From: Candidatus Kapaibacterium sp.
Lineage (GTDB): Bacteria; Bacteroidota; Ignavibacteria; Kapaibacteriales; JAEUSM01
Length of the DNA: 64,000 nt
NCBI GenBank assembly: GCA_016788785.1
Contig: JAEUSM010000013.1
Coordinates: forward strand, 56,771-120,770
Direction of reading: 5' to 3'
Shown in pieces: positions 2,532 through 53,300 of the stretch; the stretch's first letter is position 1, and the number at the start of each line of letters is the position of its first letter. A program made the translations under genes and the position numbers. The notes beneath the pieces are model-generated. The model was not told the DNA's origin, searched no databases, and saw only the letters and a program-made list of their open reading frames with translations.

Positions 2532-2643
2532 AATTTCTTAGCAATACTTTGTAGCCAATCTTGGCTATATGTGTTATAATAGTTGAAAATTGATTATTTT
2601 AAAAATTAAATTCAGTAATTCTACCACTAATTTCAACATTGTT

Positions 2644-4098
2644 ATGAGAACTATCTTTTCTACACTCGTTATTTTTTTAATTCTGCTTACAAATGCAATT
2701 TCTTCTAATTTGGAAGTTGGTGCAGGAAAACTATATACAACAATTCCTCAGGCATTAAATGTCGTTCAACCGGGTGATACCGTCGTTGTATATTCAGGAA
2801 CGTATAGTGGTGGTATTTTCAAAGAAAATTTGAAAGGAACTGCTGATAAATGGATTGTTCTTAAAACTGCTCCAGGAGAAGAAGTTATCATCAATGGTGG
2901 TTCGAATGCAATGCAGTTAAGTTCGTTTGCATATTTACTCATTGATGGTTTTACCATTCAAGGACAAACTGCTAATGGTCTTAATTTAGATGACGGAGGT
3001 ACTCTTGTTACTCCTTCTCATCATTTGATTCTGCAAAATTGTACGTTTTTGGGACTTAATGCTACTGGAAACAATGATCAGTTAAAAATGTCTGGCATTG
3101 ATACATTCACTGTTACAAAATGTAAATTCTTCAATGGCTCACCAGGTGGTTCGAGCATAGATATGGTGGGATGTCATGTTGGTAATTTTGTTGAAAATTA
3201 TTTTGAGAATGCAGGGTCAAATTGTATTCAAAATAAAGGTGGAACCAGCAATATTTTCATTCAACGAAATTATATGAATCGTGGTGGTGAACGAGCATTG
3301 AATATTGGAGGGTCAACTGGGCTTCAATTCTTTCGACCACCAGGAGCATTGTACGAAGCTAAACAAATTTATGTTCATTCAAATGTATTCGTTGGATCTA
3401 CAGGTCCCATTTCATTTGTTGGTGCCGTTGATTGTGAAGTCGTCAATAATACTATCATCAATCCAACACGATGGGCTATACGAATTTTACAGGAAAATAA
3501 CGAACCTGGGTTTGTGCAATGTAGCAACAATAAGTTCATCAATAATATAGTATATTTTACCCCAACTGGTCAACCAGTTATCAATATTGGCGGGAACACT
3601 TTACCTGAAACATTCCAGTTTTCCCACAATTTGTGGTATAATCCTGAAAATGCTCAATGGACACCAAATACTCCTGTGAATGAACCAGGTCGCATTATTG
3701 CAAATCCTCTTTTTTTAGATTCAATGGGGAGAATTGGTATGGAGTCTCCTGCCGCTTATGCTGGTTTTTTAGTGAATTTACCGAATATGGATTTTACTGG
3801 AAACACATTTTGGAAAATTGAACATCCAATTGGTGCATTTCAACCACCTCATCATTTGTCTGTAAAAGAAGAACGTGAATTGGGGCTATGCTATCCCAAC
3901 CCAACAAATGCAGCGCTTACAATAGAGTCTCTGCATTTACAAGATGAATATGTGGAAATAATCTCCATTACAGGTGAAAAAGTATACTCTGTAAACGTAA
4001 AAAGTGGCTCAACAATTTCTGTGAACCACCTTTCAAATGGAGTGTATACGATTAGAAATAAAGAAGGAAAACTTCTGAGTAGATTTGTTAAATACTAA
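2644..4098 (+). CDS. secreted right-handed beta-helix (pectate-lyase-like) protein with T9SS C-terminal sorting domain
   Basis: The ORF spans 2590..4098, and the start at 2644 ('MRTIFSTLVIFLILLTNAIS') gives a plausible signal peptide. The sequence has repetitive Asn/Gly-rich beta-helix-like segments ('NNTIINPTRWAIRILQENNEPGF...'). The C-terminal ~80 aa ('LCYPNPTNAALTIE...VYTIRNKEGKLLSRFVKY') resembles the Por/T9SS secretion tail. Confidence 0.65.
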   Translation: MRTIFSTLVIFLILLTNAISSNLEVGAGKLYTTIPQALNVVQPGDTVVVYSGTYSGGIFKENLKGTADKWIVLKTAPGEEVIINGGSNAMQLSSFAYLLIDGFTIQGQTANGLNLDDGGTLVTPSHHLILQNCTFLGLNATGNNDQLKMSGIDTFTVTKCKFFNGSPGGSSIDMVGCHVGNFVENYFENAGSNCIQNKGGTSNIFIQRNYMNRGGERALNIGGSTGLQFFRPPGALYEAKQIYVHSNVFVGSTGPISFVGAVDCEVVNNTIINPTRWAIRILQENNEPGFVQCSNNKFINNIVYFTPTGQPVINIGGNTLPETFQFSHNLWYNPENAQWTPNTPVNEPGRIIANPLFLDSMGRIGMESPAAYAGFLVNLPNMDFTGNTFWKIEHPIGAFQPPHHLSVKEERELGLCYPNPTNAALTIESLHLQDEYVEIISITGEKVYSVNVKSGSTISVNHLSNGVYTIRNKEGKLLSRFVKY

Positions 4099-4100
4099 TA

Positions 4101-5045
4101 TTAAACACCAAGTAATGTGTCTTTTCGAACATCAAATGGGGTTTTACCAAATTGGTTTTTGAACAACCTGCTCAATGAAGATTGATCTTCATATCCCACT
4201 GACATTGCCACATCAAAGATAGAAAGCGATGTAGTTTGTAATAACTGCAACGCTTTTTTCATTTTACGTTGCAACACATCTTGATATGGACTTCTACCGT
4301 ACATTTTTTTGTATAAACGAATAAAATGGAATTCGGAAAGTGACGATTTTTTTGCTAAATTACTGACTGTTAACTGTGATGGGTCAGAAAATTGAATGAG
4401 TTCATTTGCAATTTCCATTCTTCTGATTAATTCTTCTTTCGTTGATTTCTTTTTTACATCCGAAAGTGAGGCGAAATATCCACCATATCGTGCATTTTCT
4501 TGGAAATACCATTCAAAAATATCCGCTAAAAAGTCATCTTTTTCTTCAACTTTTGATGCATCATTTTTAGTCAACATTGTTTTTAATTTGTTACTAAATT
4601 CTGATGCTTTTTGGGTAAAATTCCAAATGTGAGAAATTGGTTTAAAATGTTCATTTATTAATTCAGGGTTGTCTAACAGTCTCTCATTCGTTTCTGTATA
4701 TGCAGCAGCTGCTGAACGTAATTGATGAGGATTAACAGCCACTCCCACTTGCAAAACATCATTAGATTGCAATGGCACTTTCAATGAATAATCTGAATAT
4801 TCATTAAACAATGCAACAGTTGGAGTATAAATTTGGTATTGATTTCGGTCAATGGTGTATGTCATAGAACCACCCAAAATAAACCGAACACCAAATCGCG
4901 AGACATGGGCTCCAGAATCAAAACCAGACCCACTAATAGGGAATATCCCAGTTTTCAGAGTATCAAAAGATGTCATATGTCGTGAGCAATATACCTCACC
5001 TTTGGTTACATCTAAACCATTACTGCAATAATGACAATGACTCAT
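4101..5045 (-). CDS. AraC-family transcriptional regulator
   Basis: The C-terminal 100 aa form an AraC-type helix-turn-helix (HTH) domain ('FHFIRLYKKMYGRSPYQDVLQRKMKKALQLLQTTSLSIFDVAMSVGYEDQSSLSRLFKNQFGKTPFDVRK'). The gene converges on the preceding beta-helix gene with a 2-nt gap. Confidence 0.8.
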   Translation of the reverse strand: MSHCHYCSNGLDVTKGEVYCSRHMTSFDTLKTGIFPISGSGFDSGAHVSRFGVRFILGGSMTYTIDRNQYQIYTPTVALFNEYSDYSLKVPLQSNDVLQVGVAVNPHQLRSAAAAYTETNERLLDNPELINEHFKPISHIWNFTQKASEFSNKLKTMLTKNDASKVEEKDDFLADIFEWYFQENARYGGYFASLSDVKKKSTKEELIRRMEIANELIQFSDPSQLTVSNLAKKSSLSEFHFIRLYKKMYGRSPYQDVLQRKMKKALQLLQTTSLSIFDVAMSVGYEDQSSLSRLFKNQFGKTPFDVRKDTLLGV

Positions 5046-5169
5046 AACAATTCCAAATTAAAATCACGTTGTTGAATTAGAACTAAAAACGAAGAACACC
5101 TAAATTCTAATAGAAAATAAACCTATTTTTTTTCAAAATTAGCAACAATTGTCAAAAAATGAAGAAATA

Positions 5170-5295
5170 CAATTTCCTCCAAAGGAGGGGAATTTGACCG
5201 ATAAACTGTAGAAACAAGGCATGCCCTGTCCCTACAAAAACACGATAACACCCTCGCCCCTATGGGGAGAGGGATGGGGAGAGGGGTCATTTACA
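5170..5295. repeat. GC-rich mosaic hairpin array 1, comprising a short CCTCC-AAA-GGAGG hairpin, a degenerate 30-bp palindrome and the 'CCCTCGCCCC-N-GGGGAGAGGG-TGGGGAGAGGGG' module
   Basis: The span 5251-5290 'ccctcgcccctatggggagagggatggggagaggggtcat' recurs at 13863, 16005 (reverse complement), 32938, 34806 and 53013 (reverse complement). The span 5206-5240 is a degenerate copy of the perfect palindrome at 34973. Local GC is far above the flanking AT-rich DNA. Confidence 0.8.
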
Positions 5296-5303
5296 ATGAT
5301 ACC

Positions 5304-5867
5304 TTACATCTTTATAATAGCTTGTTTGATTTTTTTGATTAGTCTGGTGTGTTGTTTGCGGACTGAGAGAATGTTCTTATTGAGAGAAACTGCTACTTCC
5401 TGAAGTCTCATTCCGTGATCATAATACAGCTGAATTAACTGTTGATCTTTGACTGTGAAGGTACGAACAATTTCGTTGATTTTTTCCTGTGTATCAGAAA
5501 TTTCTTTTGAATCTAACTGATCATCAGTATGTACAAATTCATCAAATTCTACAGAAGCAGATAGTGGATTTTTTACTGATTCTTTATATTTATTCTTACA
5601 CAGCTTTTGACAGATACCACAAAGAAAGGAATAGAAGTTATTCACTTCCATTCCTTTCTTTAGTTTCACAATCAACACAATAAGACCTTCTTGATAAATA
5701 TCCTGAATATCCTCACTACATTTCAACTTTGTTTTAAGAAAAGAATGTAAACGATGCTTGTATCTACGCTCTAATTCCTTTGTTGCATTTTCTCGTTCGT
5801 ACGTTGTATCGCTTTGTAAAAAGCGACACAACATCGAGTCAGGTAATTCAGAATATTCTTTGTTCAT
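5304..5867 (-). CDS. sigma-70 family RNA polymerase sigma factor (ECF-like)
   Basis: This 187-aa protein has a sigma region 2-like segment ('DIQDIYQEGLIVLIVKL') and a region 4 HTH ('LQEVAVSLNKNILSVRKQHTRLIKKI'). Its size is typical of ECF sigma factors. Confidence 0.7.
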   Translation of the reverse strand: MNKEYSELPDSMLCRFLQSDTTYERENATKELERRYKHRLHSFLKTKLKCSEDIQDIYQEGLIVLIVKLKKGMEVNNFYSFLCGICQKLCKNKYKESVKNPLSASVEFDEFVHTDDQLDSKEISDTQEKINEIVRTFTVKDQQLIQLYYDHGMRLQEVAVSLNKNILSVRKQHTRLIKKIKQAIIKM

Positions 5868-5908
5868 AAAATCTTGTGAAAAAAAAGAATCATCATCATT
5901 TCAAATTC

Positions 5909-6607
5909 CTAACAATCATCACCACATGGAACTAAATTACCTCTTCGCCAATCCCTAAATTGATTCTGTAAAGTACAAGAACCAATTCTTTTTCGATTTA
6001 TCTCTTTAATTTTAATATTTTTACCAAAGAAAGGACTTGAAGAACTAGATAAACATATTGTATAAGTTCTTTCACAACAAGTTCTTCCACATTCATGCCA
6101 TCTGTAATGATCTACCCACCAATCACCATCTTTAAAGTAATGTGGCATTGGAGGAGAAAAACCGGAATCGCAAATAACTGTTGTAGGATTTACTTTATAG
6201 CTACATTTTACCCATACTCCACACATCGCAGTATAAAATTGAACCGTTATTAATGAATCAACTGAACAATTAGGTATAGTTGAGCTATCTTTAGTAATCT
6301 TTCTCATTAAACCTAATTCTAATAAATTTCTAAATGTACTAAAGTCATAATGATAAATTCTAAAGGTATCTAAAAAATTTCCATTTTCTATTGCTATAGC
6401 AGAATCAATAATAAATCTAACTACTCCATTGCAATTTTGTACTCTGTAGAAAACTAAACCAGAAACATCACTAAAGTATGTAAGTTTAATGGTGTCTGCA
6501 TGTGAAGTCCATGTAGTACAAGAATCATCAGGTGGACATGTTTGAGATAATAAACTTAAATTACAAATCCCTGCTAAGCAGAATATAACAATTACTAAAT
6601 ATTTCAT
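5909..6607 (-). CDS. secreted cysteine-rich protein, paralogue B (unknown family)
   Basis: It has a signal peptide 'MKYLVIVIFCLAGICNLSLLSQ' and about 16 Cys residues. It is a clear paralogue of the 8705..9442 protein, sharing the motifs 'CNG..F..DSA', 'YH..FS.FR.L', 'NC..S..T......A.CGVWV.C.Y', 'CDSGF..P.P.Y', 'CG..CCE.TYT.C' and 'CTLQNQFRD.R......C.D.C'. Confidence 0.6.
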   Translation of the reverse strand: MKYLVIVIFCLAGICNLSLLSQTCPPDDSCTTWTSHADTIKLTYFSDVSGLVFYRVQNCNGVVRFIIDSAIAIENGNFLDTFRIYHYDFSTFRNLLELGLMRKITKDSSTIPNCSVDSLITVQFYTAMCGVWVKCSYKVNPTTVICDSGFSPPMPHYFKDGDWWVDHYRWHECGRTCCERTYTICLSSSSSPFFGKNIKIKEINRKRIGSCTLQNQFRDWRRGNLVPCGDDC

Positions 6608-6623
6608 ATTATTCTTCCTGATT

Positions 6624-7205
6624 TCAAAATGTTTGTATATTTCTTATAATTGTTTGATTATTTTTGGTCATAATCAAATAATAATTTCTATATTTAATGT
6701 TTTGGATATTAATGCTTAACTTATTTTCTCCTTGATGAATAAATGCATCACCAAGTTTAATACAATTTTTTTCTAACAAATGTAATAAATAAAAACTTGC
6801 GTTACTTTCAACTTTACTAGTACATTCAACTTCAAGTATATTAGTAATTTCATTGAAATTAACTGACAAAATTGTGTTCGAAGAATTATTTATGCTTTTT
6901 AGATGTAATGGTGATTTATTTGTCCAAGTATATTTATCTACCGAAAAAAGCGAACTTCCATCTAAAAACGAAGCATCAATTTGAATAGACTGTTCAATTG
7001 TACCATGTAAAGATAATTTTCCATCTTTTTTTGATAATTTCCATCTTTCAAAACCAAGTTTATTGTATTTTTCTCCATTTAATAATTCAAATTCAAACTG
7101 CTTAAAATTTTTAGTTAAAGAACTTTGAGATTGAATAGTATTTTGTGCCTGAACTATTAATGCAGAAAAAATACAGCAAAAAACAAATGTTAAAGTAGTT
7201 TTCAT
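6624..7205 (-). CDS. secreted hypothetical protein
   Basis: The 193-aa protein begins with an N-terminal signal peptide 'MKTTLTFVFCCIFSALIVQAQ'. It lies between the two Cys-rich paralogue genes in the same orientation with short gaps. Confidence 0.55.
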   Translation of the reverse strand: MKTTLTFVFCCIFSALIVQAQNTIQSQSSLTKNFKQFEFELLNGEKYNKLGFERWKLSKKDGKLSLHGTIEQSIQIDASFLDGSSLFSVDKYTWTNKSPLHLKSINNSSNTILSVNFNEITNILEVECTSKVESNASFYLLHLLEKNCIKLGDAFIHQGENKLSINIQNIKYRNYYLIMTKNNQTIIRNIQTF

Positions 7206-7230
7206 ATAAACCTTATATAAATCATGATTT

Positions 7231-8715
7231 TCAATTAAGAATTATAAATTGTTTTGTGTATTGCTCTTTTCCAATAGTAAGGACTGCTTGATATGTACCT
7301 GAAGGAAATTCGATAACATCAATTGGAATTACTATTTTGCCAGTTGCTTGTTCAATTCTCATTGTTTTATGTGTAACACCTGAAACATCGACTATTGAGA
7401 GTGATGCTCCATTCAGAAAACCATAGTAATGTATCGAAAGTGTTACATTCTCTTGAACGCTTGGAATAGGATATACTTCCATTTGAATTGGTTTTTCATT
7501 TGATTTTCTCGAATCAACTGAAGATACTATTTTTGGATTTGTATAAATCAATAAAGCAAGAGGGTTTGCAAAATAAATAGTATCACCAATGTAAGCAATA
7601 TCTGTAATTGTAAAAGGATGATCAAAAAAACCACCATACCTTAATAATTTGTATCTGCTATCAATACTATCACGGGTATAAAACGTTATTTGTTCTTTTT
7701 TTGGTTTATTTTCATCAATTGTAAAAAAACCAAAATCTGTTCCACACATTTTTAATCCATTTTCTCGATTTAGTAAAATGTTATGAACTCCTAACGTAGC
7801 AGGGTATCTGTTTTTCATAAATAAACGTCCTGCTATTCCATCTGCAGAATCCCATTTCGTAATTATTCCCTCTGGTGTTATTTTATAAACACCATTATAA
7901 ACTCCTCTTATAGAATAACTATCACCGCTATTAGAAGTAAACCACATATTATTATTACCATCAAATGCCATTGATGATATTCTTCTATAAATACCGTCTA
8001 AAGAAAAAGGAATATCTGTAAAGTCAATTTTTCCATTTGAAAATGTCATTAGATTATTTATACCAGAAGCAATAATACAGACTATTGAATTATCATCTCT
8101 CTTCGCCATTGCTTGAATAGCTCCATTATCAAACCGAGGATCATAAGCAAATTTATAAATTACTTCAAATGATACTTCTTGCTTACTTGTAAATAATTTT
8201 AATAATTCATTATTAGTACTATCGTAAACAACATACTCTGTACCATTGATTGTCTCACGAAATCGTTCAAATCCAATTAAAACACTAACAAACATGTCGT
8301 TATTATTGTCAAAGCAAAAATCTCGGAATTGTCTTGTTGGCAATAAATCTGCAGGTATAGGTACTGAGTCCCATTGACCTTGTTCATATTTCCAAAGATT
8401 ATTTCTTCCGAATGTCCATATGACACCATAGTTGTCAAAATGAACTTTTGAGTTGACATTTAAACCTAAATCAATACCTTCTGTTATATTTATAAAAACC
8501 GTGTCAGCATTGGTTTTTAAATAAACTGACAAAACTCCAGTTGTTTGAAGATCTTTACCCATAATTAATACCTTATCTTGAAATGTATCTATTACCTTAG
8601 GAGCTAAGCCATCTTTGAATAAATCATCTGTTTGAGAATAAATTAAAGTATTCAAAAGAAAAAAAATTGAAATTTTAAAAGAATAAGAGAATAAATGTTT
8701 CATATTAGCAACCAT
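7231..8715 (-). CDS. secreted protein with T9SS C-terminal sorting domain (possible beta-propeller-like body)
   Basis: The 494-aa protein has a hydrophobic N-terminal signal ('ISIFFLLNTLIYSQ'). Its C-terminal ~80 aa ('LSIVDVSGVTHKTMRIEQATGKIVIPIDVIEFPSGTYQAVLTIGKEQYTKQFIILN') resemble the Por secretion tail. The 3' end overlaps the next gene by 11 nt. Confidence 0.65.
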   Translation of the reverse strand: MVANMKHLFSYSFKISIFFLLNTLIYSQTDDLFKDGLAPKVIDTFQDKVLIMGKDLQTTGVLSVYLKTNADTVFINITEGIDLGLNVNSKVHFDNYGVIWTFGRNNLWKYEQGQWDSVPIPADLLPTRQFRDFCFDNNNDMFVSVLIGFERFRETINGTEYVVYDSTNNELLKLFTSKQEVSFEVIYKFAYDPRFDNGAIQAMAKRDDNSIVCIIASGINNLMTFSNGKIDFTDIPFSLDGIYRRISSMAFDGNNNMWFTSNSGDSYSIRGVYNGVYKITPEGIITKWDSADGIAGRLFMKNRYPATLGVHNILLNRENGLKMCGTDFGFFTIDENKPKKEQITFYTRDSIDSRYKLLRYGGFFDHPFTITDIAYIGDTIYFANPLALLIYTNPKIVSSVDSRKSNEKPIQMEVYPIPSVQENVTLSIHYYGFLNGASLSIVDVSGVTHKTMRIEQATGKIVIPIDVIEFPSGTYQAVLTIGKEQYTKQFIILN

Positions 8716-9442
8716 CCTGACATTGAATTAATTGATTAGTTCTACCGTCGCGAAACTGATTTTGTAACGTACAATTTGGAGTTTCTTGATGCCGTTGTTT
8801 TTGAATTTGTTTAACAAAAGTAATTGGTTCTAGACCTGTAAAATTGTTTTTTACACAAACAGTATAAGTTTTTTCACAACAAATCTCTCCACAAGATTCA
8901 TATTTCAATATATCTACATATTTAATTCCATTAAAAGTATAATCTGGAAATGGAGCAGCAAAACCACTATCACACATCCTACTATTTGTATCGATCTCGT
9001 ATCTACATCGTACCCATACGCCACATGCAGCTGAATATATTTTTGTAATTGTATTACTATCTGGACAATTTGGCATATTCATAATACCAATACTTTCTTC
9101 AACTATATATAAATCTATTAAGTCTCTAAAAGCTGAAAAATTATGATGGTAAATCATCAAAGAATCTAAGAATTTTGAATTATCAAACATTACCGCACTA
9201 TCTAACAAAAACTCCCATCGACCATTACATATCCTTGCTCTATAATATATAATACCATTAAGGCCAATGGTAGTATCTTGATCAAAATTATCTATTTGTA
9301 TGTTTTCTACTTGTTCCCACCATTGAGAAGTGTCACAAGGGAAATCACATCCTGTAGATTGTGCTTTTATAGATATAGTAGAAAGTACAAAGAGGCAAAT
9401 TATTACAATCCAAGGTACTTTCAAATAAAAACGTTTTTTCAT
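8705..9442 (-). CDS. secreted cysteine-rich protein, paralogue A (unknown family)
   Basis: The 245-aa protein has a signal peptide ('IVIICLFVLSTISIKAQS'). Its Cys framework is conserved with the 5909..6607 protein, and the two C-termini are nearly identical ('CTLQNQFRDGRTNQLIQCQDGC' versus 'CTLQNQFRDWRRGNLVPCGDDC'). Confidence 0.6.
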   Translation of the reverse strand: MKKRFYLKVPWIVIICLFVLSTISIKAQSTGCDFPCDTSQWWEQVENIQIDNFDQDTTIGLNGIIYYRARICNGRWEFLLDSAVMFDNSKFLDSLMIYHHNFSAFRDLIDLYIVEESIGIMNMPNCPDSNTITKIYSAACGVWVRCRYEIDTNSRMCDSGFAAPFPDYTFNGIKYVDILKYESCGEICCEKTYTVCVKNNFTGLEPITFVKQIQKQRHQETPNCTLQNQFRDGRTNQLIQCQDGC

Positions 9443-9465
9443 TTATACATCCTTTATAAAATAGA

Positions 9466-10149
9466 TTATTTGCTCATGATGGTTATTGGAATTAGAGACT
9501 TTTTGAGATAGGTTGAGCCAGAATACTGTAATTCAACAGTACCAATATAATTACCCTTAGATTTTGTTATTACTTCAATTTGCACTAAGGAAGTGTTATT
9601 TGCTTTGATGGTTTTTCCGCCAAAGAAATGAAGCTTTGCTTCACATCCATTGAGGGTAATAGATTCAGAGCTAATCGTAATGTCCTTGTTGCTTTCGTTC
9701 ACGAGCATTACCTCTGAAAATACCGTTGTACCACTATCAGCGATAATATACGGAAATTTTTCTGGTTCGACGATTATCTCCCGCATTACTATCCCTTGCA
9801 AATACATCGAGGCAGTAGATCGCATGGGATCATTGGAGACAAAATCCACCCTGCTTGCACGTTCACCAGTATATTTACTCACATCAAATTTCAATTCAAT
9901 TTGTACTGAATCTTGTGGTATAATGGTTTTATTCGTAAGAGGAACGAAGGTACATCCACACGATGCAGAAATATCCGATATCTCCAATTCTGCATTTCCA
10001 TTATTATAGACTGTAACTGGAACTATATGAACCGTCGGTGCAATTTTTCCCAAAAACAACACACTATCCACAGACAGATGTAATTTGGGTTGTGATACTA
10101 AACAACAGAATGTTGTGAGAAAAATTACTGTAAATATAACCGTTTTCAT
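9466..10149 (-). CDS. DUF1573-domain secreted protein
   Basis: It has a signal peptide ('MKTVIFTVIFLTTFCCLVSQ') and the hallmark DUF1573 motif 'ISASCGCT' that is common in Bacteroidota and Chlorobi. It is the first gene of the minus-strand secreted-protein operon. Confidence 0.7.
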   Translation of the reverse strand: MKTVIFTVIFLTTFCCLVSQPKLHLSVDSVLFLGKIAPTVHIVPVTVYNNGNAELEISDISASCGCTFVPLTNKTIIPQDSVQIELKFDVSKYTGERASRVDFVSNDPMRSTASMYLQGIVMREIIVEPEKFPYIIADSGTTVFSEVMLVNESNKDITISSESITLNGCEAKLHFFGGKTIKANNTSLVQIEVITKSKGNYIGTVELQYSGSTYLKKSLIPITIMSK

Positions 10150-10436
10150 TAGCGAAGCAAGAGTGTAAAAAGAATGATAAGTAGGTCTCTTTATTGGTAA
10201 GTGTCATTTTTTAGCAAAAAAGTGACATTTGAAGAAAAAATATTTCATTTTTCTGTATTTTGTTGAATATGTTGACCACACAAAACTATCAAAAATCAAT
10301 TCTATATCGTAATAACAATTGAAAAAAATAAAAATCCCAACTATTTTCAAATTTTGTTTGAAAGTGTGGGATTATGGGTTATGTTATTTTTGATATTTTT
10401 TCGATTTCGTGAAATTGGATTTTTTTTGATTCAGAA

Positions 10437-10610
10437 TGCCCCCTCACCCCAGCCCTCACCCTCGTAGGGGAGAGGGAGTTGATTTTTGGTGGAAAGTTGT
10501 TCTATAAATATGTGACCACTCCGTGTCAAGAGAAGCCACCCCGCCACACTTCGACTTCGCTCAGTGACCAGTGGCACCCCTCCTAATTTAGGAGGGGAGT
10601 TTGACCCCAC
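10437..10610. repeat. GC-rich mosaic hairpin array 2
   Basis: The span 10437-10488 'cccctcaccccagccctcaccctcgtaggggagagggag' matches module A-prime at 34726 and the reverse complement at 53146. The span 10535-10581 'gccaccccgccacacttcgacttcgctcagtgaccagtggcacccc' matches module D, with reverse-complement copies at 32882 and 34914 and a variant at 53246. The span 10575-10597 holds the perfect hairpin 'cccctcctaatttaggagggg'. Confidence 0.8.
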
Positions 10611-10627
10611 TAATTTGAATTTACTTC

Positions 10628-12994
10628 CTAAAACTCTACTCTTACTCCACCAATTGGGAATACGCCTAATTGGTATGCAGTAGAGACATTGTCGTTGCGA
10701 GGGCTATATAAACGGAATGATACATTTTGTGTGTTGAGCATATTTTCAACGGAAACAAAGCTGATGAGTGACCAACCGTTGAAATTTTGGCGGAAATCTA
10801 TTCGTCCGTCGAACCTTGAGAAATTTGGGTTGCGTTCGGTATTCACCAAATTGTTATTCAAACGTGTGGCATTGAAGGCACGAGATTGTTCCAAATCTAC
10901 TGGTGTATATGGTGCTCCACCAGCAACGGTGAATTTTCCGGAAAACTCGATAGAAAATGTTTCGTCAATTTTCCATTCATACCCTGCAAGTAAATTACCA
11001 ATAAATTGATTATCAAATGCTCCCCATCTCCAAACACCATCAGAGCCAGTAAATTCTTGGCGTACTATTGAACCAGTTGCAGTTATATAATACCCATCTG
11101 AGAAGTTTTTTTGGAATGTAAGTTCAGCACCATACGTACGACCTTTCCCACCATTGAAATAGGTGTCTTCTATTGCAATGGAACCGAATTGAGCACCTGC
11201 ATTTAAAAATGATACGCCATTAATTTGGTTTTTCATTACAGGAGCATTAGAATAGTCTTTATAATATCCTTCCACTTTAACAAGCATATCAGATGCTAAT
11301 TGAACAGAGTACCCAGTTACATAATGAATTGCTTGGGTAAAATCTAATTGAGCATTGTCTTGGGTGGCAAAATACATTTGCAACGATTGAGATTGACGAT
11401 ATATTCCCGTTCCAAAACTGAAGTTTTGTCCCTCAAATGGCGACCAATTAAGGGAAAAACGAGGTTCAACTGACCATTTTTTCGAAATATCCAGATACTG
11501 AGTATGAACACCTGTATTGATTCTCAAATTATCAGTGATTCGCCAATTCCAATTCACATAGTTCAGTGATTGAAAAGCGGTACCTTCATTGCCAATTTTC
11601 GAAATTGGTTGTGTCCCAATATAAAAGAATGGATAGGTAAAACGTTCAATCGCAATATCAAAATATCGGTAACGACCTTCGATTCCAGCTGAAAACACAT
11701 TCGAAGCGTCTGGTGCCCAAACGTATCGTAATTTTGCAGTATGGTATCCTTCAGTAGAGTTGTTTTTCAACCAAGGATCTATGGAAGTAACATTTTCTTT
11801 TGAAGTCGCGGTGATGGAATCCACTTGTACAAAATACTTGTTGTAAACCGTTCCAACAGTAAGAATAGCATACGAACGTTCTGTCAGAAGTCGTTGCCAA
11901 TTTACTGCAGTTACGAAAATATCTGTTCCATTGATGATATTTTGATCACCGGTGAAAACTGTGTCGACAGTTGTTTGATCGATATTGATATTACTTGTTC
12001 CATACAAAGTAGTAATGGAAATTTTATCGTCTTTTGAAGGAGCCAAATCAACCTTTGCAGAAAAATCTTGAAATTCTGGTACACCTGCCCAACCAAAATT
12101 AATGCCCATTGCTTTGAGTAATCCCAAATACGAGTATCGATAATTCGCCATAAACGAACCATTCAATGCTTTAAGAGGTCCTTCTATACCTAATTCAAGA
12201 CCATTAAAACCAAATTGACCAATGTATTCAAATTTTTCTTCGTTTCCTTTACGTGTTCTCAAATCGAACACACCAGAAAGTCTGTCTCCATATTCCGAAG
12301 GAAATGAGCCTGTTAAAAAGTCACTATTTGCTAACAAGTTAATGTTGATAGCAGAAATTGGTCCACCAGTTGCACCTTGTGTCGCAAAGTGATTTGGATT
12401 TGGAATATCCAAACCGTCTAATCTCCACAATAACTCCGTAGGTGAACCGCCACGAATGATGATATCATTACGCTGGTCAGAAGCACCCAAAACACCTGCA
12501 AAGTTTTGAGCCATACGAGCTGGATCTCCACGTGAACCTGCGAATCTATACGCATCATCAACCGTAAATACATTCGAACTAACTATAGCAGCTTCATTTA
12601 TTGCTTTGAATTGCGAACGAGCATCGTCTACGACAACTTCCTCAATTTTCACAATTTTTTCCAAAAGTTCTATACTGACGACCAATTCCTTGCCTGATGT
12701 TACAACAATTTGGGAAGAATATGGTTCAAACCCTACACCAGTCGCCATCAAAACATAGCGACCTGTAGGAACATTTTTGATGCGGAAATCACCATTGGCA
12801 GTACTAATAGCACCATTTTTTGTATCCACAATTCCGACACGAATACCTTTCAACGGTTGCTTAGTACTACTTGAAACCACAGTCCCTCGCACTATTTGTG
12901 TAGGAGTTTTTTCTTCTTGAGCAGAAGAAGTTTGGAAATCACAAAAAAAGAGCAATCCCAATAGAACAACAAGTAAAAAACGATACGTTTTCAT
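10628..12994 (-). CDS. TonB-dependent receptor with N-terminal carboxypeptidase-regulatory-like domain
   Basis: The 788-aa protein has a signal peptide followed by a CarbopepD_reg-like segment ('IVRGTVVSSSTKQPLKGIRVGIVDTKNGAISTANGDFRIKNVPTGRYVLMA'). A plug region and a long beta-barrel follow, ending in the aromatic C-terminus '...GGVRVEF'. Confidence 0.85.
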   Translation of the reverse strand: MKTYRFLLVVLLGLLFFCDFQTSSAQEEKTPTQIVRGTVVSSSTKQPLKGIRVGIVDTKNGAISTANGDFRIKNVPTGRYVLMATGVGFEPYSSQIVVTSGKELVVSIELLEKIVKIEEVVVDDARSQFKAINEAAIVSSNVFTVDDAYRFAGSRGDPARMAQNFAGVLGASDQRNDIIIRGGSPTELLWRLDGLDIPNPNHFATQGATGGPISAININLLANSDFLTGSFPSEYGDRLSGVFDLRTRKGNEEKFEYIGQFGFNGLELGIEGPLKALNGSFMANYRYSYLGLLKAMGINFGWAGVPEFQDFSAKVDLAPSKDDKISITTLYGTSNINIDQTTVDTVFTGDQNIINGTDIFVTAVNWQRLLTERSYAILTVGTVYNKYFVQVDSITATSKENVTSIDPWLKNNSTEGYHTAKLRYVWAPDASNVFSAGIEGRYRYFDIAIERFTYPFFYIGTQPISKIGNEGTAFQSLNYVNWNWRITDNLRINTGVHTQYLDISKKWSVEPRFSLNWSPFEGQNFSFGTGIYRQSQSLQMYFATQDNAQLDFTQAIHYVTGYSVQLASDMLVKVEGYYKDYSNAPVMKNQINGVSFLNAGAQFGSIAIEDTYFNGGKGRTYGAELTFQKNFSDGYYITATGSIVRQEFTGSDGVWRWGAFDNQFIGNLLAGYEWKIDETFSIEFSGKFTVAGGAPYTPVDLEQSRAFNATRLNNNLVNTERNPNFSRFDGRIDFRQNFNGWSLISFVSVENMLNTQNVSFRLYSPRNDNVSTAYQLGVFPIGGVRVEF

Positions 12995-13655: not shown

Positions 13656-13749
13656 TGAATACCACTCACTTACTAAACACTGTTTAGTGTATGAACGTAC
13701 ATTATTTTTGATTATTGTTGTAAGGTGAATTTTTTTTTAAAATTTAGAT

Positions 13750-13905
13750 TCCACCCTTGTGTAGCGGAGTCATCATCGCAAACCGTAGAGACGCAAAATT
13801 TTGCGTCTCTACAAAAAGTACATCCAATACTCTTCCAAAGGAGGAAATCAAAAAAAAACATCTCCCTCGCCCCTTTGGGGAGAGGGTCGGGGAGAGGGGT
13901 TTCTC
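13750..13905. repeat. GC-rich mosaic hairpin array 3
   Basis: The span 13785-13811 is the perfect palindrome 'tagagacgcaaaattttgcgtctcta' (module C). The span 13830-13850 reads 'ctcttccaaaggaggaaatc', and 13863-13900 is module A ('ccctcgcccctttggggagagggtcggggagaggggt'). The array lies between the TetR gene start and the 3' end of adenylate cyclase gene 2. Confidence 0.8.
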
Positions 13906-13924
13906 TGCATTAAAAGTATTTAAC

Positions 13925-15898
13925 TTACTTCCCTTTCTCCAACCAAAATGTGTTCATTGTTCCTTTTCCTTTAATGGAAATTTCTCCACGTGGAATGAGT
14001 GAAAATTCTTGGTGTGATTCGATGGATTTTGCGAATTGTTCACTGATGTGGATGCGACCGGCCTCTGAGTTTGATTCCATTCGTGAGGCTACATTTACTG
14101 CATCGCCCCATAGGTCATAGGTGTATTTGTTTTTGCCAATGATACCTGCAACGACTTCACCAGTGTGAATACCGATGCGAATTTCGATGTTGTTCATATT
14201 CTTTATCCATTCAGTAGCACCCAAATCTGATGGAATATTGACTACAAAATCTTTCATAGTTTCGAGAAGTTGCAGCGCAGCAAGTGCGGTTGCTTTTTGG
14301 TGTTCTTTGAGCGGAGTAGTCACATTCGCTACAGCCAAATACCCATCACCAATGGTTTTTATTTTTTCTAAACCAAAGGTTTCCACCACTTCATCTGCTT
14401 TTTGGAAAATTGCATCGAGTAAGAAGACAAGTTGTTTTGGTGGTGCAATGGATGCGAGTGTTGTAAACCCAACCAAATCCATAAAAAGTACAGAAGCAGT
14501 TTCAAAGTGGTCGGCAATAGGATTTTCACCCTTTACCAAACGATCTGTTACAGAATCAGGAAGTATATTTCGAAGGATACTTTCTCGCCCTAATAATTTT
14601 CCTCGTTCTTCAGCTATTTTAATTTCTTGTTCCGCTAATTTACGTTGGAGGTGAAAATTATCTGCTTGTTTTTTTGCTTCGATAGTTTGGATTTCTTTTT
14701 CTAAGGAAACGAATTTTTTGTGATATTCTAAAGATTCTTCAAATCTCATTTCATTTTGTCGTAACGTATGAATATGTTCATATGCATCTTTAATTATATC
14801 TTTTGCACCGATTTCTTCTGCAAGTAGTAGCGACTTTTGCAAATATTCTTCTGCTTTTTTTGTATCATAGTACGCTGATTCTTTTGTTGAGTATACACTT
14901 CCGATATTTCCGAGATTTTTTGCAATAGTATTTTTTCTCCCAATTACTTGGGAGATTTGTAAAGCTTTTGAGTAAAATTCCAAGGCTTGTGAGTCATCAG
15001 AAAGTTCCTTGTATACATTACCAATATTTCCAAGATTTGTAGCAATACCATCATTGTTTCTACTTTCTTCATTGATGTGTAAAGCTTTTGAATAATACTC
15101 TAACGCTTTGGGGTAGTCTGAAAGTTTTTTGTAAATAACTCCAATATTACCAAGGTTAGATGCAATACCATTTTTGTTTCCAATTTCTTTATTTATATGT
15201 AAAGTTTGATGAAAATACTCTAAGGCTTTTTGGTAATCAGAAAGATTTGCGTAAACAGTCCCAATATTACCAAGCGCATTTGCTTGAAATTGCTTATGTC
15301 CTATTTCTTCTGTGATTAATAATGCCTTTCCATAGAACTCTAATGCTTTCTGATAGTCAGAAAGTTCCTTGAAAACATTACCAATATTCACCAAATTTCC
15401 ACTAATTTCACCTTTATTTCCAATTTCTTCATTAATAAGTAGTGCTTTTGAATAAAACTCTAATGCATTTGGATATTCTGATAGATACCATTTAACACTC
15501 CCAATATTCCCAAAGTTTCTAGCAATTCCATTTTTGTTGCCAATTTCTTCAAAAATTTTTAACGCTTTTGAAAAATACTCTAAAGCTTTAGGGTAGTCTG
15601 AAAGAATCTGGTAAACTATACCAATATTCCCAAGATTATTTGCAATTTCACCTTTGTTTCCTCTTTTTTCATAGATGTGTAGTGATTTTTCATAATATTC
15701 TATTGCTTTGAAACAGTCTGAAAGATAACTGTATATAGCCCCAAGATAACTACAGACCTTTGCAAGTGAATTAGGGTCTTCTTGGATTGCTTTATTCTCT
15801 ATGAGTTCTTCAGCAAATGATTTTGCTTCTTGATTTTGTGATTTATTCACCAAATCTTTTAATTTTTCAATTGAGGCATTTATATCTTCGGGAGTCAT
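13925..15898 (-). CDS. TPR-repeat class III adenylate cyclase (paralogue 2)
   Basis: The 657-aa protein has about eight 40-aa TPR-like units ('NLGNIG.VY..LSDYPKALEYYSKAL.I.EEIGNK.GIA.'), then a coiled-coil and a cyclase catalytic domain ('VLFMDLVGFT', 'IKTIGDGYLAV', 'RIGIHTGEVVAGIIGKNKYTYDLWGDAVNVASRMES'). It is roughly 88% identical at the DNA level to 50935..52974 in the C-terminal half. Confidence 0.85.
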   Translation of the reverse strand: MTPEDINASIEKLKDLVNKSQNQEAKSFAEELIENKAIQEDPNSLAKVCSYLGAIYSYLSDCFKAIEYYEKSLHIYEKRGNKGEIANNLGNIGIVYQILSDYPKALEYFSKALKIFEEIGNKNGIARNFGNIGSVKWYLSEYPNALEFYSKALLINEEIGNKGEISGNLVNIGNVFKELSDYQKALEFYGKALLITEEIGHKQFQANALGNIGTVYANLSDYQKALEYFHQTLHINKEIGNKNGIASNLGNIGVIYKKLSDYPKALEYYSKALHINEESRNNDGIATNLGNIGNVYKELSDDSQALEFYSKALQISQVIGRKNTIAKNLGNIGSVYSTKESAYYDTKKAEEYLQKSLLLAEEIGAKDIIKDAYEHIHTLRQNEMRFEESLEYHKKFVSLEKEIQTIEAKKQADNFHLQRKLAEQEIKIAEERGKLLGRESILRNILPDSVTDRLVKGENPIADHFETASVLFMDLVGFTTLASIAPPKQLVFLLDAIFQKADEVVETFGLEKIKTIGDGYLAVANVTTPLKEHQKATALAALQLLETMKDFVVNIPSDLGATEWIKNMNNIEIRIGIHTGEVVAGIIGKNKYTYDLWGDAVNVASRMESNSEAGRIHISEQFAKSIESHQEFSLIPRGEISIKGKGTMNTFWLEKGK

Positions 15899-15929
15899 AG
15901 TTTTGTTGGAAGGTTGTATTGGTTTTTTG

Positions 15930-16245
15930 TCGTACGAATATACGAAAATAAGGGCATTCAGCCACTATCTAAAGATAGTGGAAATTCAAAACATTAGAAC
16001 ATGTACCCCCTCTCCCCGTACCCTCTCCCCAAAGGGGCGAGGGAGTTATCGTGTTTTTTGTAGTGACGCACAATTTGCATCTCTGAAGAAACCACCCCGA
16101 CCTTCGGTCACCCTTCCAAAGGAGGGGAATAGACCAACAACCCACAATTTCCAACATAGGGCTTACACTCTATGCAGTGATAGTACGCCCCTTCAGGGCT
16201 TGACCTCTCTGATTTTTGAGACGCCCATATAGGGCGTCTCTACGA
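15930..16245. repeat. GC-rich mosaic hairpin array 4, in the divergent intergenic region between adenylate cyclase 2 and nnr
   Basis: Module B 'gccactatctaaagatagtgg' is at 15961-15981 and module A (reverse complement) at 16005-16045. A degenerate module C is at 16058-16090, followed by 'ccttccaaaggaggggaa' and module G 'gccccttcagggcttgacc' at 16194-16214. The module C palindrome 'gagacgcccatatagggcgtctc' sits at 16217-16241. The first ~130 bp are collinear with array 7 (52950-53100). Confidence 0.8.
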
Positions 16246-16302
16246 TTGCATTGTTATGATTGAATATATGGAATAAATAATACCCATATTCTTTGTGCGT
16301 TT

Positions 16303-33024: not shown

Positions 33025-33116
33025 TTAAAAAGATTCCAACACATCGTAAAAGTCACCTATTTCATTTGATATTTTTGAATTTTAATTTTTTTTTCCTATA
33101 TTAGAAGTTATTAATT

Positions 33117-34661
33117 GTGGTCCATCAAAATAAGGAGAAAATCATGAAATACTTCTTTCTTTTATTATGTGCAACATCGTTATCCATTGCACAAGGAATA
33201 AATCAAAAACCTCCGTTTCTATGGGAAAACATATACACCGAAGGAATAATGAGAAGAGGAACTTTTAGGTTCTTTCATCCATTTGACCAACAATCTGTTT
33301 TAGTTATTAGTGAGCAATTAACTGATACTTCTTTTTCGCTTAGATTTTTTCAAAAGTATAATATACTTTCTGGCGAAATTGAGTGGACAAAACCCGGAGA
33401 AGTTGAAGGAAAGCCATTAGACATTCCAATCGCCCCAACTTTTTATTATCAACCGACAAAAGTTGACAATAAAATTTTGATTTCCTCATTAGCTAAACCT
33501 GCAGGTGATCTTGGCTCTACTTTTAGCTTTAGAAGGCAATTTTCTATTGATTCCGATGGAAACACTAAGTTTGAGAGGCTTTATGAAAACAACAGAGAGA
33601 TATTTAAGTCAAAACATCTTAAAGTTGTTGACCAGAATGAGTATATTTATCTTTCGGAGCTTATAAGTTCTGAACAAAATTTTTCAGATAGTACTCTTTT
33701 TAATTACGAGAAAGATGGTATAATTTCTTCTTACCCATTGAAACGCTTTTCTATGATGCATAGTTCACAATGGAATTTGTCAAATGCATGGAAAAGAGCT
33801 GATGGAAAAATTGATTTTATATTAGCGTCTTACAATGAAGATACTAATTGTATTTCATTTAGAACTCTTGATGTAGAAAAGGAAACAATATCAGATGTTA
33901 GTATTATGGGAGAAGAACTTGGTTTAACACCTGATGCATTTCTGACAGTGAGAGATTCTAAGAAAATTGACCACTATTATTATGTTGTTGTTGATGTAGG
34001 TTACTATTACGCTCCTGATAATATACTTTTAAAATTAGACCAAAATGGTAATGTGCTCAAACAAACTGGTTTTAGTGGTTACTCATCTACATGGGGTATG
34101 GAAAAAGGTCCAAATAACTCTATCATCTTGTATGGAGGTACATTTATACCAAATGAAAATCCTAACACCAAAACTAACCAATGGATTGCTCAATTTGATA
34201 CCGAATTGAATAAAATGAATGAGTTTATTTGGGGTACAAACGAAGTTGACATTACAACAGTTGCTACTTATTTTGACGGTGTAGGGTTACTTACCGGTGG
34301 TTTTTATAATAAAAACGATAAAAATTATACATGTACACCTCAAATTGGTCTCATCCCTGAATCTGTGTTTTTGGATGTGTCTTCTGTTGCTGAAAAAAAA
34401 TCAGAAACACTTACAATGCAAATTGTAGAAGATGCTTCTGCAAATTCCTCTTTAGTAGTGAATTCTAAACATCAGCAAACAGTTACTATTAATTTACTTG
34501 ATGCTAATGGAAGATTGGTATCTGTTGTTTCAACAGGAATTCTTTCAGAAGGTGAAAACCGATTTACCTTACCAACATCACTCTCGAATGGAATGTATCT
34601 GGTGAGTTGTGAGCAAAATGGTACTATACTTAGCTCTGAAAAATTCATTATCAAAAAATAG
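33117..34661 (+). CDS. secreted protein with T9SS C-terminal sorting domain, unknown function
   Basis: It has a signal peptide ('MKYFFLLLCATSLSIAQG'). The C-terminal ~90 aa ('...VVNSKHQQTVTINLLDANGRLVSVVSTGILSEGENRFTLPTSLSNGMYLVSCEQNGTILSSEKFIIKK') resemble the Por secretion tail. An ATG at 33144 is an alternative start. Confidence 0.6.
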   Translation: MVHQNKEKIMKYFFLLLCATSLSIAQGINQKPPFLWENIYTEGIMRRGTFRFFHPFDQQSVLVISEQLTDTSFSLRFFQKYNILSGEIEWTKPGEVEGKPLDIPIAPTFYYQPTKVDNKILISSLAKPAGDLGSTFSFRRQFSIDSDGNTKFERLYENNREIFKSKHLKVVDQNEYIYLSELISSEQNFSDSTLFNYEKDGIISSYPLKRFSMMHSSQWNLSNAWKRADGKIDFILASYNEDTNCISFRTLDVEKETISDVSIMGEELGLTPDAFLTVRDSKKIDHYYYVVVDVGYYYAPDNILLKLDQNGNVLKQTGFSGYSSTWGMEKGPNNSIILYGGTFIPNENPNTKTNQWIAQFDTELNKMNEFIWGTNEVDITTVATYFDGVGLLTGGFYNKNDKNYTCTPQIGLIPESVFLDVSSVAEKKSETLTMQIVEDASANSSLVVNSKHQQTVTINLLDANGRLVSVVSTGILSEGENRFTLPTSLSNGMYLVSCEQNGTILSSEKFIIKK

Positions 34662-34720: not shown

Positions 34721-35005
34721 TATTACCCCTCACCCCAGCCCTCTCCCTCAAAGGGAGAGGGAGTTTACTAATAACATTCTCTAATATTTCAAAATATAGG
34801 TTGTTCCCTCGCCCCATTGGGGAGAGGGTTAGGGAGAGGGGGTTTTTCTTCATAAATGGGCGTAAGCAATACGCCCCTACAATACCAATAAACGATAAGT
34901 TCCCCTCTTGAGGGGTGTCACCGGTCACTGATCGTAGTCGAAGTGTGGCGGGGTGGAATCGTCATCGAAACGTGTAGAGACAGGGCATGCCCTGTCTCTA
35001 CAAAA
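34690..35005. repeat. GC-rich mosaic hairpin array 6
   Basis: Module F is followed by module A-prime (34726-34765) and module A (34806-34845). The hairpin 'gggcgtaagcaatacgccc' is at 34858-34877, module E 'cccctcttgagggg' at 34902-34915 and module D (reverse complement) at 34914-34958. A perfect 30-bp palindrome 'tgtagagacagggcatgccctgtctctaca' occupies 34973-35002. Confidence 0.8.
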
Positions 35006-52974: not shown

Positions 52975-53300
52975 TATCTAAAGATAGTGGCACTTCGTAT
53001 ATGGAAATTTGTCCCCCCTCTCCCCGTACCCTCTCCCCAAAGGGGCGAGGGAGTTGTTTTGTTCTTGTAGAGACGCACGGACGTGCGTCTCTGAAGATTC
53101 CACCCCGCCATTTAATGGCACCCCTCAAGAGGGGAACCCAAAGATATCTCCCTCTCCCCTTGAGGGAGAGGGTTGGGGTGAGGGGTCATTCTGAATCAAT
53201 GGGCAGACTCGTAGGTCTGCCCCTATAAAATTTCAAAAAAGTTCGACCTCGCCACATTACGACTACGCTCAGTGACCATGGCAGTCCTTAAGAGGGGAAC
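52950..53300. repeat. GC-rich mosaic hairpin array 7
   Basis: Module B 'gccactatctaaagatagtggc' is at 52970-52991 and module A (reverse complement) at 53013-53053. Module C 'gagacgcacggacgtgcgtctc' is at 53070-53091 and the hairpin 'gccatttaatggc' at 53107-53119. Module E 'cccctcaagagggg' is at 53122-53135 and module A-prime (reverse complement) at 53146-53190. The hairpin 'gggcagactcgtaggtctgccc' is at 53200-53222, module D at 53246-53283 and module E 'ccttaagagggg' at 53286-53297. Confidence 0.8.

Follow-up and report, generated by a model that had tools for sequence, protein, structure and literature searches.

What could two paralogous, exported, cysteine-rich proteins be doing in one gene cluster with type IX secretion system (T9SS) cargo and a sigma factor? 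This question is raised by positions 5,304 to 10,149 of a 64,000-nucleotide stretch of Candidatus Kapaibacterium sp. DNA (contig JAEUSM010000013.1; this whole stretch is called the window below), for which a preliminary description had proposed a secreted-protein operon of six genes. Here we report that the two Cys-rich proteins belong to a family that appears undescribed, that genes of this family are accompanied by a partner gene, usually for a T9SS cargo, and that the six genes occupy a genomic island whose interior is hypervariable between close relatives. These observations are most economically read as a self-regulated surface module.

Layout of the six-gene unit

The unit comprises the following genes, given in the order of their reading:

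9466..10149, minus strand: DUF1573 immunoglobulin-like protein (PF07610), 227 amino acids (aa), with a CGC motif and a signal peptide
8705..9442, minus strand: Cys-rich protein A (CysA), 245 aa, with a signal peptide and 14 cysteines in the mature part
7231..8715, minus strand: beta-propeller of the Reg_prop type with a T9SS type A C-terminal sorting domain (TIGR04183), 494 aa
6624..7205, minus strand: small exported protein, 193 aa, with an N-terminal domain of ~100 aa and a C-terminus resembling a T9SS tail
5909..6607, minus strand: Cys-rich protein B (CysB), 232 aa, a CysA paralog with the same 14-Cys framework
5304..5867, minus strand: sigma-70 family factor of the extracytoplasmic function (ECF) type, 187 aa, with regions 2 and 4 only; last gene

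All six co-oriented minus-strand open reading frames (ORFs) of the preliminary description were recovered, to the nucleotide. Its claim that they lie no more than 25 nt apart applies to four junctions (23, -11, 25 and 16 nt), but not to that between CysB and the sigma factor gene, which measures 41 nt. The overlap of 11 nt, by which the propeller gene starts within the end of CysA, is common to four lineages. The six-gene order itself is kept in four Kapabacteria lineages despite differing flanks; together with the single promoter-like block upstream and the joint gain or loss of the genes, this bears out the proposal that they behave as one unit, which is presumably co-transcribed. An Rfam search of positions 4000-10700 gave no match.

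Reading signal peptides directly from the sequence, we found a hydrophobic N-terminus followed by A/S|Q, i.e. a Sec signal peptide with Gln at position +1, in all five products other than the sigma factor. Gln at +1 is common in this lineage, with a Q-value of 77% for Ignavibacterium (PMC5837995). A lipoprotein reading was rejected, as the residue before the first Cys is Gln and not Gly, Ala or Ser.

A Cys-rich family with a disulfide signature

The size of the Cys-rich family only became apparent with a sensitive method. A word-indexed protein search gave no more than 7-12 relatives; only when 1.84 billion cluster representatives were searched exhaustively with a profile did 136 proteins emerge at E<=1e-3 (98 at E<=1e-10), corresponding to at least 136 clusters at 50% identity. 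Nearly all members are 220-260 aa long. Where a source is named, it mostly belongs to the Kapabacteria; the others are 'Chlorobi bacterium NICIL-2' and metagenome-assembled genomes of Ignavibacteriae. Relatives that carry any name in their source are always called 'hypothetical protein'. Locus scans for the family yielded four loci in genomes and two short contigs in metagenomes.

CysA and CysB are true paralogs, as had been proposed: they are 36% identical from end to end (E=1e-55), with 14 cysteines in register. Three of the shared blocks highlighted earlier (CDSGF..P.P.Y, CG..CCE.TYT.C and CTLQNQFRD.R......C.D.C) are exact, while the first (NC.DS.TI...) needs a one-residue indel. Gene order, intact reading frames and the 14-Cys framework are kept across lineages down to ~25% identity, and any difference in variability between the N- and C-terminal parts of the Cys-rich proteins is weak at most.

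The statement that the two proteins fit no family that could be named held in every collection searched. There was no meaningful Pfam match for 103 full-length members, nothing for CysA or CysB in NCBIfam, PADLOC or PHROGs, and no match at E<=10 among PDB sequences, either with a single sequence or with a 103-sequence profile. An AlphaFold2 model built on the 103-sequence alignment (mean predicted local distance difference test, pLDDT, 90.4; predicted TM-score, pTM, 0.80) consists mostly of beta structure, in which several hairpins are very long, and has a single long helix; an earlier model from an eight-sequence alignment (pLDDT 63) was not used. Foldseek found no fold match for the confident model among solved structures (PDB; nothing at E<=1e-3, TM-scores of at most ~0.17) or viral ones (BFVD). 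The family thus appears to be undescribed and, judged from this model, to lack a recognisable fold among solved structures. A phage origin was rejected, with neither a structure match in BFVD nor a match in PHROGs.

Disulfides were deduced from the covariation of cysteines across the 103 family members. C184, C188 and C189 of the CG..CC motif are invariant, and nine further cysteines are at least 89% conserved. C36 and C72 vary together (phi 0.96), both being missing in 14 sequences and only one of them in a single sequence, and C126 is coupled to C196 (phi 0.80). Besides, an extra pair at alignment positions 61 and 89 occurs in 61 of the 103 members (phi 1.0) and is missing from both window proteins. 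After the signal peptide, the number of cysteines is even in 87/103 members, with 16 in 56 and 14 in 20 of them. Such co-loss and even counts argue for structural disulfides rather than free thiols or metal ligands, and they indicate seven of these bonds in CysA and in CysB each. In combination with the signal peptides, this is in line with the earlier portrayal of the pair as disulfide-rich and exported.

A partner gene next to the Cys-rich genes

The T9SS tail attributed to the 494-aa protein was supported by TIGR04183 (25.5 bits, cut-off 23), while the score of the window copy against the Pfam sorting domain PF18962 was 19.5, compared to a gathering score of 27. Ten propeller partners could be aligned; all of them match Por_Secre_tail (best 8e-10) and five carry Reg_prop repeats. 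The partner profile also matches the periplasmic sensor propeller of BT4663 (4a2l; 1e-15) and PorZ (5m11; 2e-5).

To what extent this association is general can be judged from the eleven contexts with enough downstream sequence, namely the window and the related loci L001, L004, L006, L009/L017, L010, L013, L014, L018, L019 and L021. In 11/11, a gene for 440-553 aa lies 3' of the Cys-family gene, directly or after one ORF. Ten contexts have the partner (471-553 aa) immediately downstream, with spacings between an overlap of 29 nt and a gap of 30 nt; L021 has an ORF of 228 aa between the Cys-family gene and a 440-aa partner. The tail is Pfam-supported for nine of the eleven partners. Those of L019 and L021 gave no Pfam match, to the tail or otherwise, and were missed by a small propeller hidden Markov model (HMM).

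A third gene, for ~190-240 aa, usually comes next. Five of the eight positional orthologs of the small protein match Por_Secre_tail, that of L010 with 29.7 bits and hence above the gathering score. The window copy of 193 aa is below the tail threshold, and its C-terminus aligns with those of the orthologs. The preliminary description had listed it simply as a small secreted protein. Export is indeed predicted; since the orthologs carry T9SS tails, however, it is probably a second T9SS cargo.

The second Cys-rich paralog recurs in the distant locus L018, where the order is Cys-propeller-Cys-small. DUF1573 and the sigma factor are missing from distant loci. The preliminary description had asked whether the Cys-rich pair always co-occurs with the T9SS cargo and DUF1573 genes; a tailed partner is usual, in nine of the eleven contexts, but DUF1573 is not constant. 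On the evidence of these gene neighbourhoods, the universal core would be a Cys-rich protein plus a partner of 440-553 aa, usually a T9SS cargo of the propeller type and often joined by a small T9SS cargo, with the second paralog, DUF1573 and the sigma factor as apparent clade-specific additions. In the literature searched, we found no description of a consistent pairing of the Cys-rich family with a partner gene that is usually T9SS cargo.

Some further observations concern the same loci. Downstream of the L018 module, positions 4870-5475 encode a further secreted, Cys-rich product (201 aa), the third at this locus; its C-terminus has a similar C..GC ending, yet the family HMM does not detect it. 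In L014, genes for a thioredoxin and a pterin-4a-carbinolamine dehydratase (7161-7830) lie directly 5' of the pair of Cys-rich and T9SS-tailed genes; this arrangement may be a coincidence or a further redox link. The window itself holds two more T9SS-tailed proteins, a beta-helix protein of 502 aa resembling Pel9A and chondroitinase B (2590-4098, convergent with the AraC-like gene described below) and one of 518 aa (33105-34658), which makes it likely that this organism relies heavily on the T9SS.

A presence/absence island

The six genes are bounded by repeats, and other repeats lie just inside these borders:

10590..10606, minus strand: left copy of a 17-nt direct repeat, GGTCAAACTCCCCTCCT, in the hairpin after the upstream 788-aa gene; left island edge
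5176..5199, minus strand: right copy of the repeat, GGTCAAATTCCCCTCCT, at 5183-5199, overlapping a terminator-like hairpin (5188-5176); right island edge
10441..10476: GC-rich hairpin element with CCCTCNCCCC arms, inside the left end of the island; dispersed repeat
5251..5285: GC-rich hairpin element belonging to the dispersed repeat just listed; 3' end of the island

The edges were set by aligning an empty site with both window junctions. We came to this site, in the loci L027 and L028 from close relatives, through orthologs of the AraC gene that lies downstream of the unit. Both loci share the backbone order RecG, CDP-alcohol transferase, YjeF, TetR and a 788-aa CarboxypepD_reg protein, which a spacer of 184 nt separates from AraC, followed in turn by a Pel9A-like T9SS protein; all six genes are missing from them. 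In the 64 kb, the 17-nt sequence GGTCAAAYTCCCCTCCT has two copies and no more, in direct orientation (0.01 copies expected), and it occurs once in the empty site L027; downstream of the right copy, the window is collinear with the empty site up to AraC. Because there is an empty site, and because the repeat is found at both edges but only once in that site, the segment from ~5183 to 10606 is best described, from these alignments, as a presence/absence island of ~5.4 kb.

The six-gene unit also occurs in other neighbourhoods, namely in L001 (with a flagellar cluster and a cation diffusion facilitator, CDF, transporter) and in L006. Around the L001 island, we found no flanking direct repeat, and none of the six genes encodes an integrase, a transposase or another mobility protein according to Pfam, NCBIfam and PHROGs.

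The AraC regulator beyond the right edge had been called divergent. This was incorrect: the AraC-like gene (4101-5045) is co-directional with the unit and is part of the conserved backbone, with 89-95% identity in relatives. Its product has a Cys/His-rich N-terminus (MSHCHYCSNG...CSRH), unlike classical AraC sensor domains.

The hairpin array noted earlier after the sigma factor gene (5176-5290) is real, but it belongs to a genome-wide GC-rich repeat and is not specific to the module. In the window, we counted 19 matches to the CCCTCNCCCC arm at seven intergenic sites (0.07 expected). The elements lie at 5251-5285, 10441-10476, 13864-13898, 16008-16043, 34727-34828, 53016-53051 and 53150-53184 in a genome of ~33% GC, and they are related to GC-rich palindromic elements in L003 and L006. 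They may be elements of the repetitive extragenic palindromic (REP) kind or recombination hot spots. A second indel lies at 13743-16275, a segment that L003 and L027 lack although their backbone is collinear in other respects. It holds a 657-aa gene with tetratricopeptide repeats and an adenylate/guanylate cyclase domain (13925-15898, minus strand) and is bracketed by inverted triplets of the CCCTCNCCCC hairpin (13864-13898 and 16008-16043), with which its edges coincide.

A hypervariable interior behind a conserved first gene

For a comparison at short range, we combined L003 (flanks) and L004 (operon), which are 99.8% identical over a 2.2-kb overlap and so represent one lineage. This lineage is close to the window genome, with flanks of 87-89% DNA identity. 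Protein identity, synonymous divergence (dS), the ratio of nonsynonymous to synonymous divergence (dN/dS) and GC content are as follows:

Five backbone genes: protein identity 89-99%, dS 0.22-0.53, dN/dS 0.02-0.12, GC 38-39%
DUF1573: protein identity 93%, dS 0.47, dN/dS 0.07, GC 36%
CysA: protein identity 65%, dS 1.02, dN/dS 0.26, GC 30.5%
Propeller: protein identity 44%, dS 1.44, dN/dS 0.36, GC 29.6%
Small protein: protein identity 33%, dS 2.03, dN/dS 0.34, GC 23.7%
CysB: protein identity 64%, dS 1.56, dN/dS 0.18, GC 30.3%
Sigma factor: protein identity 59%, dS 0.83, dN/dS 0.34, GC 32.6%

From CysA to the sigma factor, the products are thus 33-65% identical at saturated dS, compared to near-identical flanks. 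In a sliding window of 100 nt, identity stays at 85-98% through DUF1573 and falls abruptly to 45-81% from the junction between DUF1573 and CysA, a sharp breakpoint at ~9440. The interior is also mosaic: the sigma factor is 81% identical to that of L006 and 57% to that of L004, whereas CysA shows 54% and 63%, respectively. DUF1573 is 86-93% identical across lineages and evolves like the backbone. Its inclusion in the unit was therefore justified insofar as it is gained and lost together with the other five genes, but its evolutionary regime differs from theirs.

Promoter-like block and sigma factor

Two elements upstream of DUF1573 are candidates for control of the unit:

10222..10247, minus strand: promoter-like block TGAAAT-N15-GTCAC (AAAATGAAAT-N15-GTCAC) with ECF-like -35 and -10 elements, 72 nt before the DUF1573 ATG
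10334..10372, minus strand: imperfect palindrome ATCCCAnnnTTTCAAA...TTTGAAAnnnnTGGGAT, upstream of the promoter block; candidate operator

In every lineage, the island is accompanied by some 250 nt of sequence upstream of DUF1573. The promoter-like block is invariant, precedes DUF1573 in L001-L007 and occurs only once in the window. We take it to resemble ECF promoters of the TGAAAC...CGTC type, with a spacing that is a little short. No second copy was found in the spacer between CysB and the sigma factor gene, nor any internal block in the unit; a scan for the sigma-70 consensus was uninformative, with sites no more frequent than in shuffled sequence. The palindrome is kept in all five aligned upstream regions, the flanking genes of which differ, and has a central 11-nt insertion in L001; it may serve as an operator.

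In L006, a segment of ~85 nt with the promoter also precedes an unlinked propeller paralog, and the similarity stops just after GTCAC. A promoter common to the members of a small regulon would be expected to give such a picture. The paralog itself (L006 512-2137) is a T9SS propeller that is 48% identical to the window protein.

The preliminary assignment of the last gene to the ECF-like sigma factors is well supported. Its product scores 66.5 against TIGR02937 (cut-off 42.9), with Sigma70_r2 at residues 34-95 and r4 at residues 140-181, and lacks regions 1.1 and 3. Regions 2 and 4 are nearly constant across four lineages, while the N-terminus and the linker vary, a pattern that is compatible with a sigma factor reading the invariant promoter. 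We found no candidate for an anti-sigma factor in the island: Pfam and NCBIfam show no cytoplasmic or anti-sigma domain in any of its genes, and the five other products all carry signal peptides. The cysteines C14, C50, C86 and C90 of the sigma factor are invariant across four divergent lineages. ECF groups without an anti-sigma factor, controlled via cysteines or at the level of transcription, do exist (ECF238 with CorE2 and SigZ, and ECF282; PMC7826278). By analogy to ECF238, the island sigma factor may be under direct redox or metal control via its four cysteines.

The DUF1573 protein

The DUF1573 call for the first gene was substantiated by PF07610 (46.8 bits, cut-off 26.1), with the CGC motif in SASCGCTF. 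Positions held by selenocysteine or Cys in selenoprotein families are usually redox-active. The NCBIfam model closest to the window protein is that of the OS_HP2 (seleno)protein family (NF041425), and DUF1573 proteins with a UGC motif are listed among prokaryotic selenoproteins (PMC9312934), a record that implies a redox-active CGC site in the window protein as well. Since the gene for this conserved, presumably redox-active periplasmic protein precedes those for two proteins with seven predicted disulfides each, its position hints at a folding or isomerase helper for the latter.

What the island may encode

We read the island as a self-regulated, exchangeable and fast-evolving module of the cell envelope or surface, in which the Cys-rich proteins partner T9SS cargos, and hold this reading tentatively, at slightly less than even confidence. 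In this scenario, the ECF-type sigma factor encoded at the 3' end would read the TGAAAT-N15-GTCAC promoter and thereby drive its own operon in a positive feedback, plus unlinked propeller paralogs with the same promoter. The Cys-rich proteins would be folded oxidatively in the periplasm into domains with seven disulfides, possibly assisted by the DUF1573 CGC protein, while the propeller and the small protein would be exported by the T9SS. Each Cys-rich protein would bind its cognate cargo, CysA the propeller and CysB the small protein, and the complex might be displayed on, or released from, the outer membrane in a binding or recognition role. Surface exposure could then explain the swapping and diversification of the cassette between otherwise near-identical genomes.

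Several points weigh against this account. High dS reflects old allelic divergence or recombination and not necessarily positive selection, dN/dS being below 1 throughout. DUF1573 and the sigma factor are not essential to the core function, because distant members of the module lack them, and the homology between the window propeller and distant partners appears weak (for L019 and L021, none could be detected). Lacking a T9SS tail, the Cys-rich proteins might end up in more than one location, and the apparent novelty of their modelled fold is valid for PDB and BFVD only. The distance of 14-15 nt between the -35 element and (T)GTC is somewhat short for classical ECF promoters. Moreover, co-transcription, the link between sigma factor and promoter and the contacts between the proteins are steps that we infer, as are the role of DUF1573 and the selective agent.

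A more specific version would make the Cys-rich proteins new-fold, cognate subunits of the T9SS cargos. Each would bind the adjacently encoded tailed protein in the periplasm and would either leave with it through the T9SS, lacking its own tail (piggy-back export), or keep the cargo inactive; the cassette with its private, co-diversifying sigma factor would be a polymorphic, T9SS-dependent system for recognition or antagonism, exchanged between Kapabacteria strains. We consider this version unlikely, though by no means negligible.

A related proposal, to which we assign a rather low probability, is a polymorphic antagonism locus of the bacteriocin or effector-immunity kind, consisting of a T9SS-exported or Cys-rich toxin, a paired periplasmic inhibitor that shields the producer and the sigma factor as a switch. 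Many toxins and inhibitors are secreted proteins rich in disulfides. The extreme divergence between strains of adjacent, translationally coupled gene pairs within a conserved backbone fits such a locus, as do the presence/absence polymorphism, the relocation of the unit between contexts and the two cargo/Cys-rich pairs suggested by the layout of both the window and L018. However, searches of Pfam, NCBIfam, PADLOC and PHROGs returned no toxin, peptidase, nuclease, pore-forming, lectin or inhibitor domain in any of the six proteins, and no toxin domain emerged from Foldseek searches of the Cys-rich model against PDB and other collections. Besides, Reg_prop propellers such as the cargo serve in binding or sensing in known relatives, and the pairing is not strict, as distant loci have one Cys-rich gene per two cargos or a 1:1 ratio without the small protein.

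The cysteines themselves invite another explanation, a periplasmic module against redox or metal stress, in which the Cys-rich proteins buffer or bind metals or oxidants, DUF1573 acts as a redox enzyme and the Cys-bearing sigma factor senses the stress directly. DUF1573 belongs to a redox family of the selenoprotein type, and a sigma factor with four invariant cysteines and no anti-sigma partner has its precedents in ECF238, CorE2 and SigZ (PMC7826278). In L001, a gene for cation efflux of the CDF type lies after the island, and a pump of the resistance-nodulation-division (RND) type and sulfur-related genes flank the module in L010; these transport genes, however, differ from locus to locus. 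Cysteines that are even in number and lost in pairs speak for structural disulfides instead of free ligand thiols, the universal partner is a T9SS-exported propeller and not a redox or transport protein, and neither hypervariability nor dispensability between near-identical genomes would be expected for proteins that buffer stress. We therefore regard this explanation as improbable.

Finally, a decaying cluster of orphan ORFs on a degenerate mobile element, with no coherent function and no special role for the Cys-rich family, would account for the low GC content (24-33%, compared to 36-39% in the flanks and DUF1573), the complete lack of annotations and the island behaviour without mobility genes, but it is already disfavoured by the conservation statistics and thus very improbable, given purifying selection on all five variable genes (dN/dS 0.18-0.36), a 14-Cys framework, intact frames and a gene order kept across lineages, a confident and compact AlphaFold model and an invariant promoter block.

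Comparison with known systems

Returning to the surface module as our preferred reading, several of its parts have known counterparts. PorZ of Porphyromonas gingivalis (5m11) and the propeller of the Bacteroides hybrid two-component system (HTCS) protein BT4663 (4a2l) are matched by the partner orthologs at the profile level. In contrast to them, the partner comprises about one propeller (~400 aa before the tail) and has no kinase or regulator domains. It carries a type A sorting tail and is not known to act in the T9SS machinery. The partner is always preceded by a Cys-rich gene, whereas PorZ and HTCS loci are not described with one.

The island sigma factor shares the restriction to regions 2 and 4, the conserved cysteines and the lack of an anti-sigma candidate with ECF238 (CorE2/SigZ) and ECF282 (PMC7826278). 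It differs in that its cysteines are located in the N-terminus and region 2 and not in a C-terminal extension; against SigZ and other equivalog models it falls far short of the cut-offs, and it is hypervariable between close genomes. As in autoregulated ECF operons, a conserved ECF-like promoter precedes the operon that contains the sigma factor gene. However, this gene is the last and not the first one, in agreement with the atypical 3' position pointed out previously. With its own sigma factor and promoter, the 5.4-kb island is compact enough to be moved into a heterologous host.

As for DUF1573, the window protein has CGC where selenoprotein members of the OS_HP2 family (PF07610, NF041425) have UGC. 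We propose a link to disulfide-rich clients, for which there is no earlier description; the island would tie this widespread, selenoprotein-type domain to candidate client proteins.

Hypervariable genomic islands for exposed surface structures or polymorphic antagonism genes offer a further comparison, which we make here in general terms only. Shared features are a sharply bounded diverged segment, an empty site, flanking direct repeats and exported products. Unlike such islands, ours has neither glycan biosynthesis genes nor a recognised toxin, contains no integrase or transposase and brings its own sigma factor and DUF1573. The contrast between the conserved DUF1573 gene and its five hypervariable neighbours provides a natural record of surface diversification in a poorly known phylum.

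T9SS cargo is generally treated as autonomous, in that a signal peptide and a C-terminal tail suffice. A disulfide-rich family without such a tail, encoded only beside a partner gene for 440-553 aa that is usually T9SS-tailed, suggests a class of cargo partners that has gone unrecognised. Taken together, the T9SS cargo, the ECF sigma factor, DUF1573 and the flexible genomic island are all of known kinds, whereas the central Cys-rich family is undescribed.

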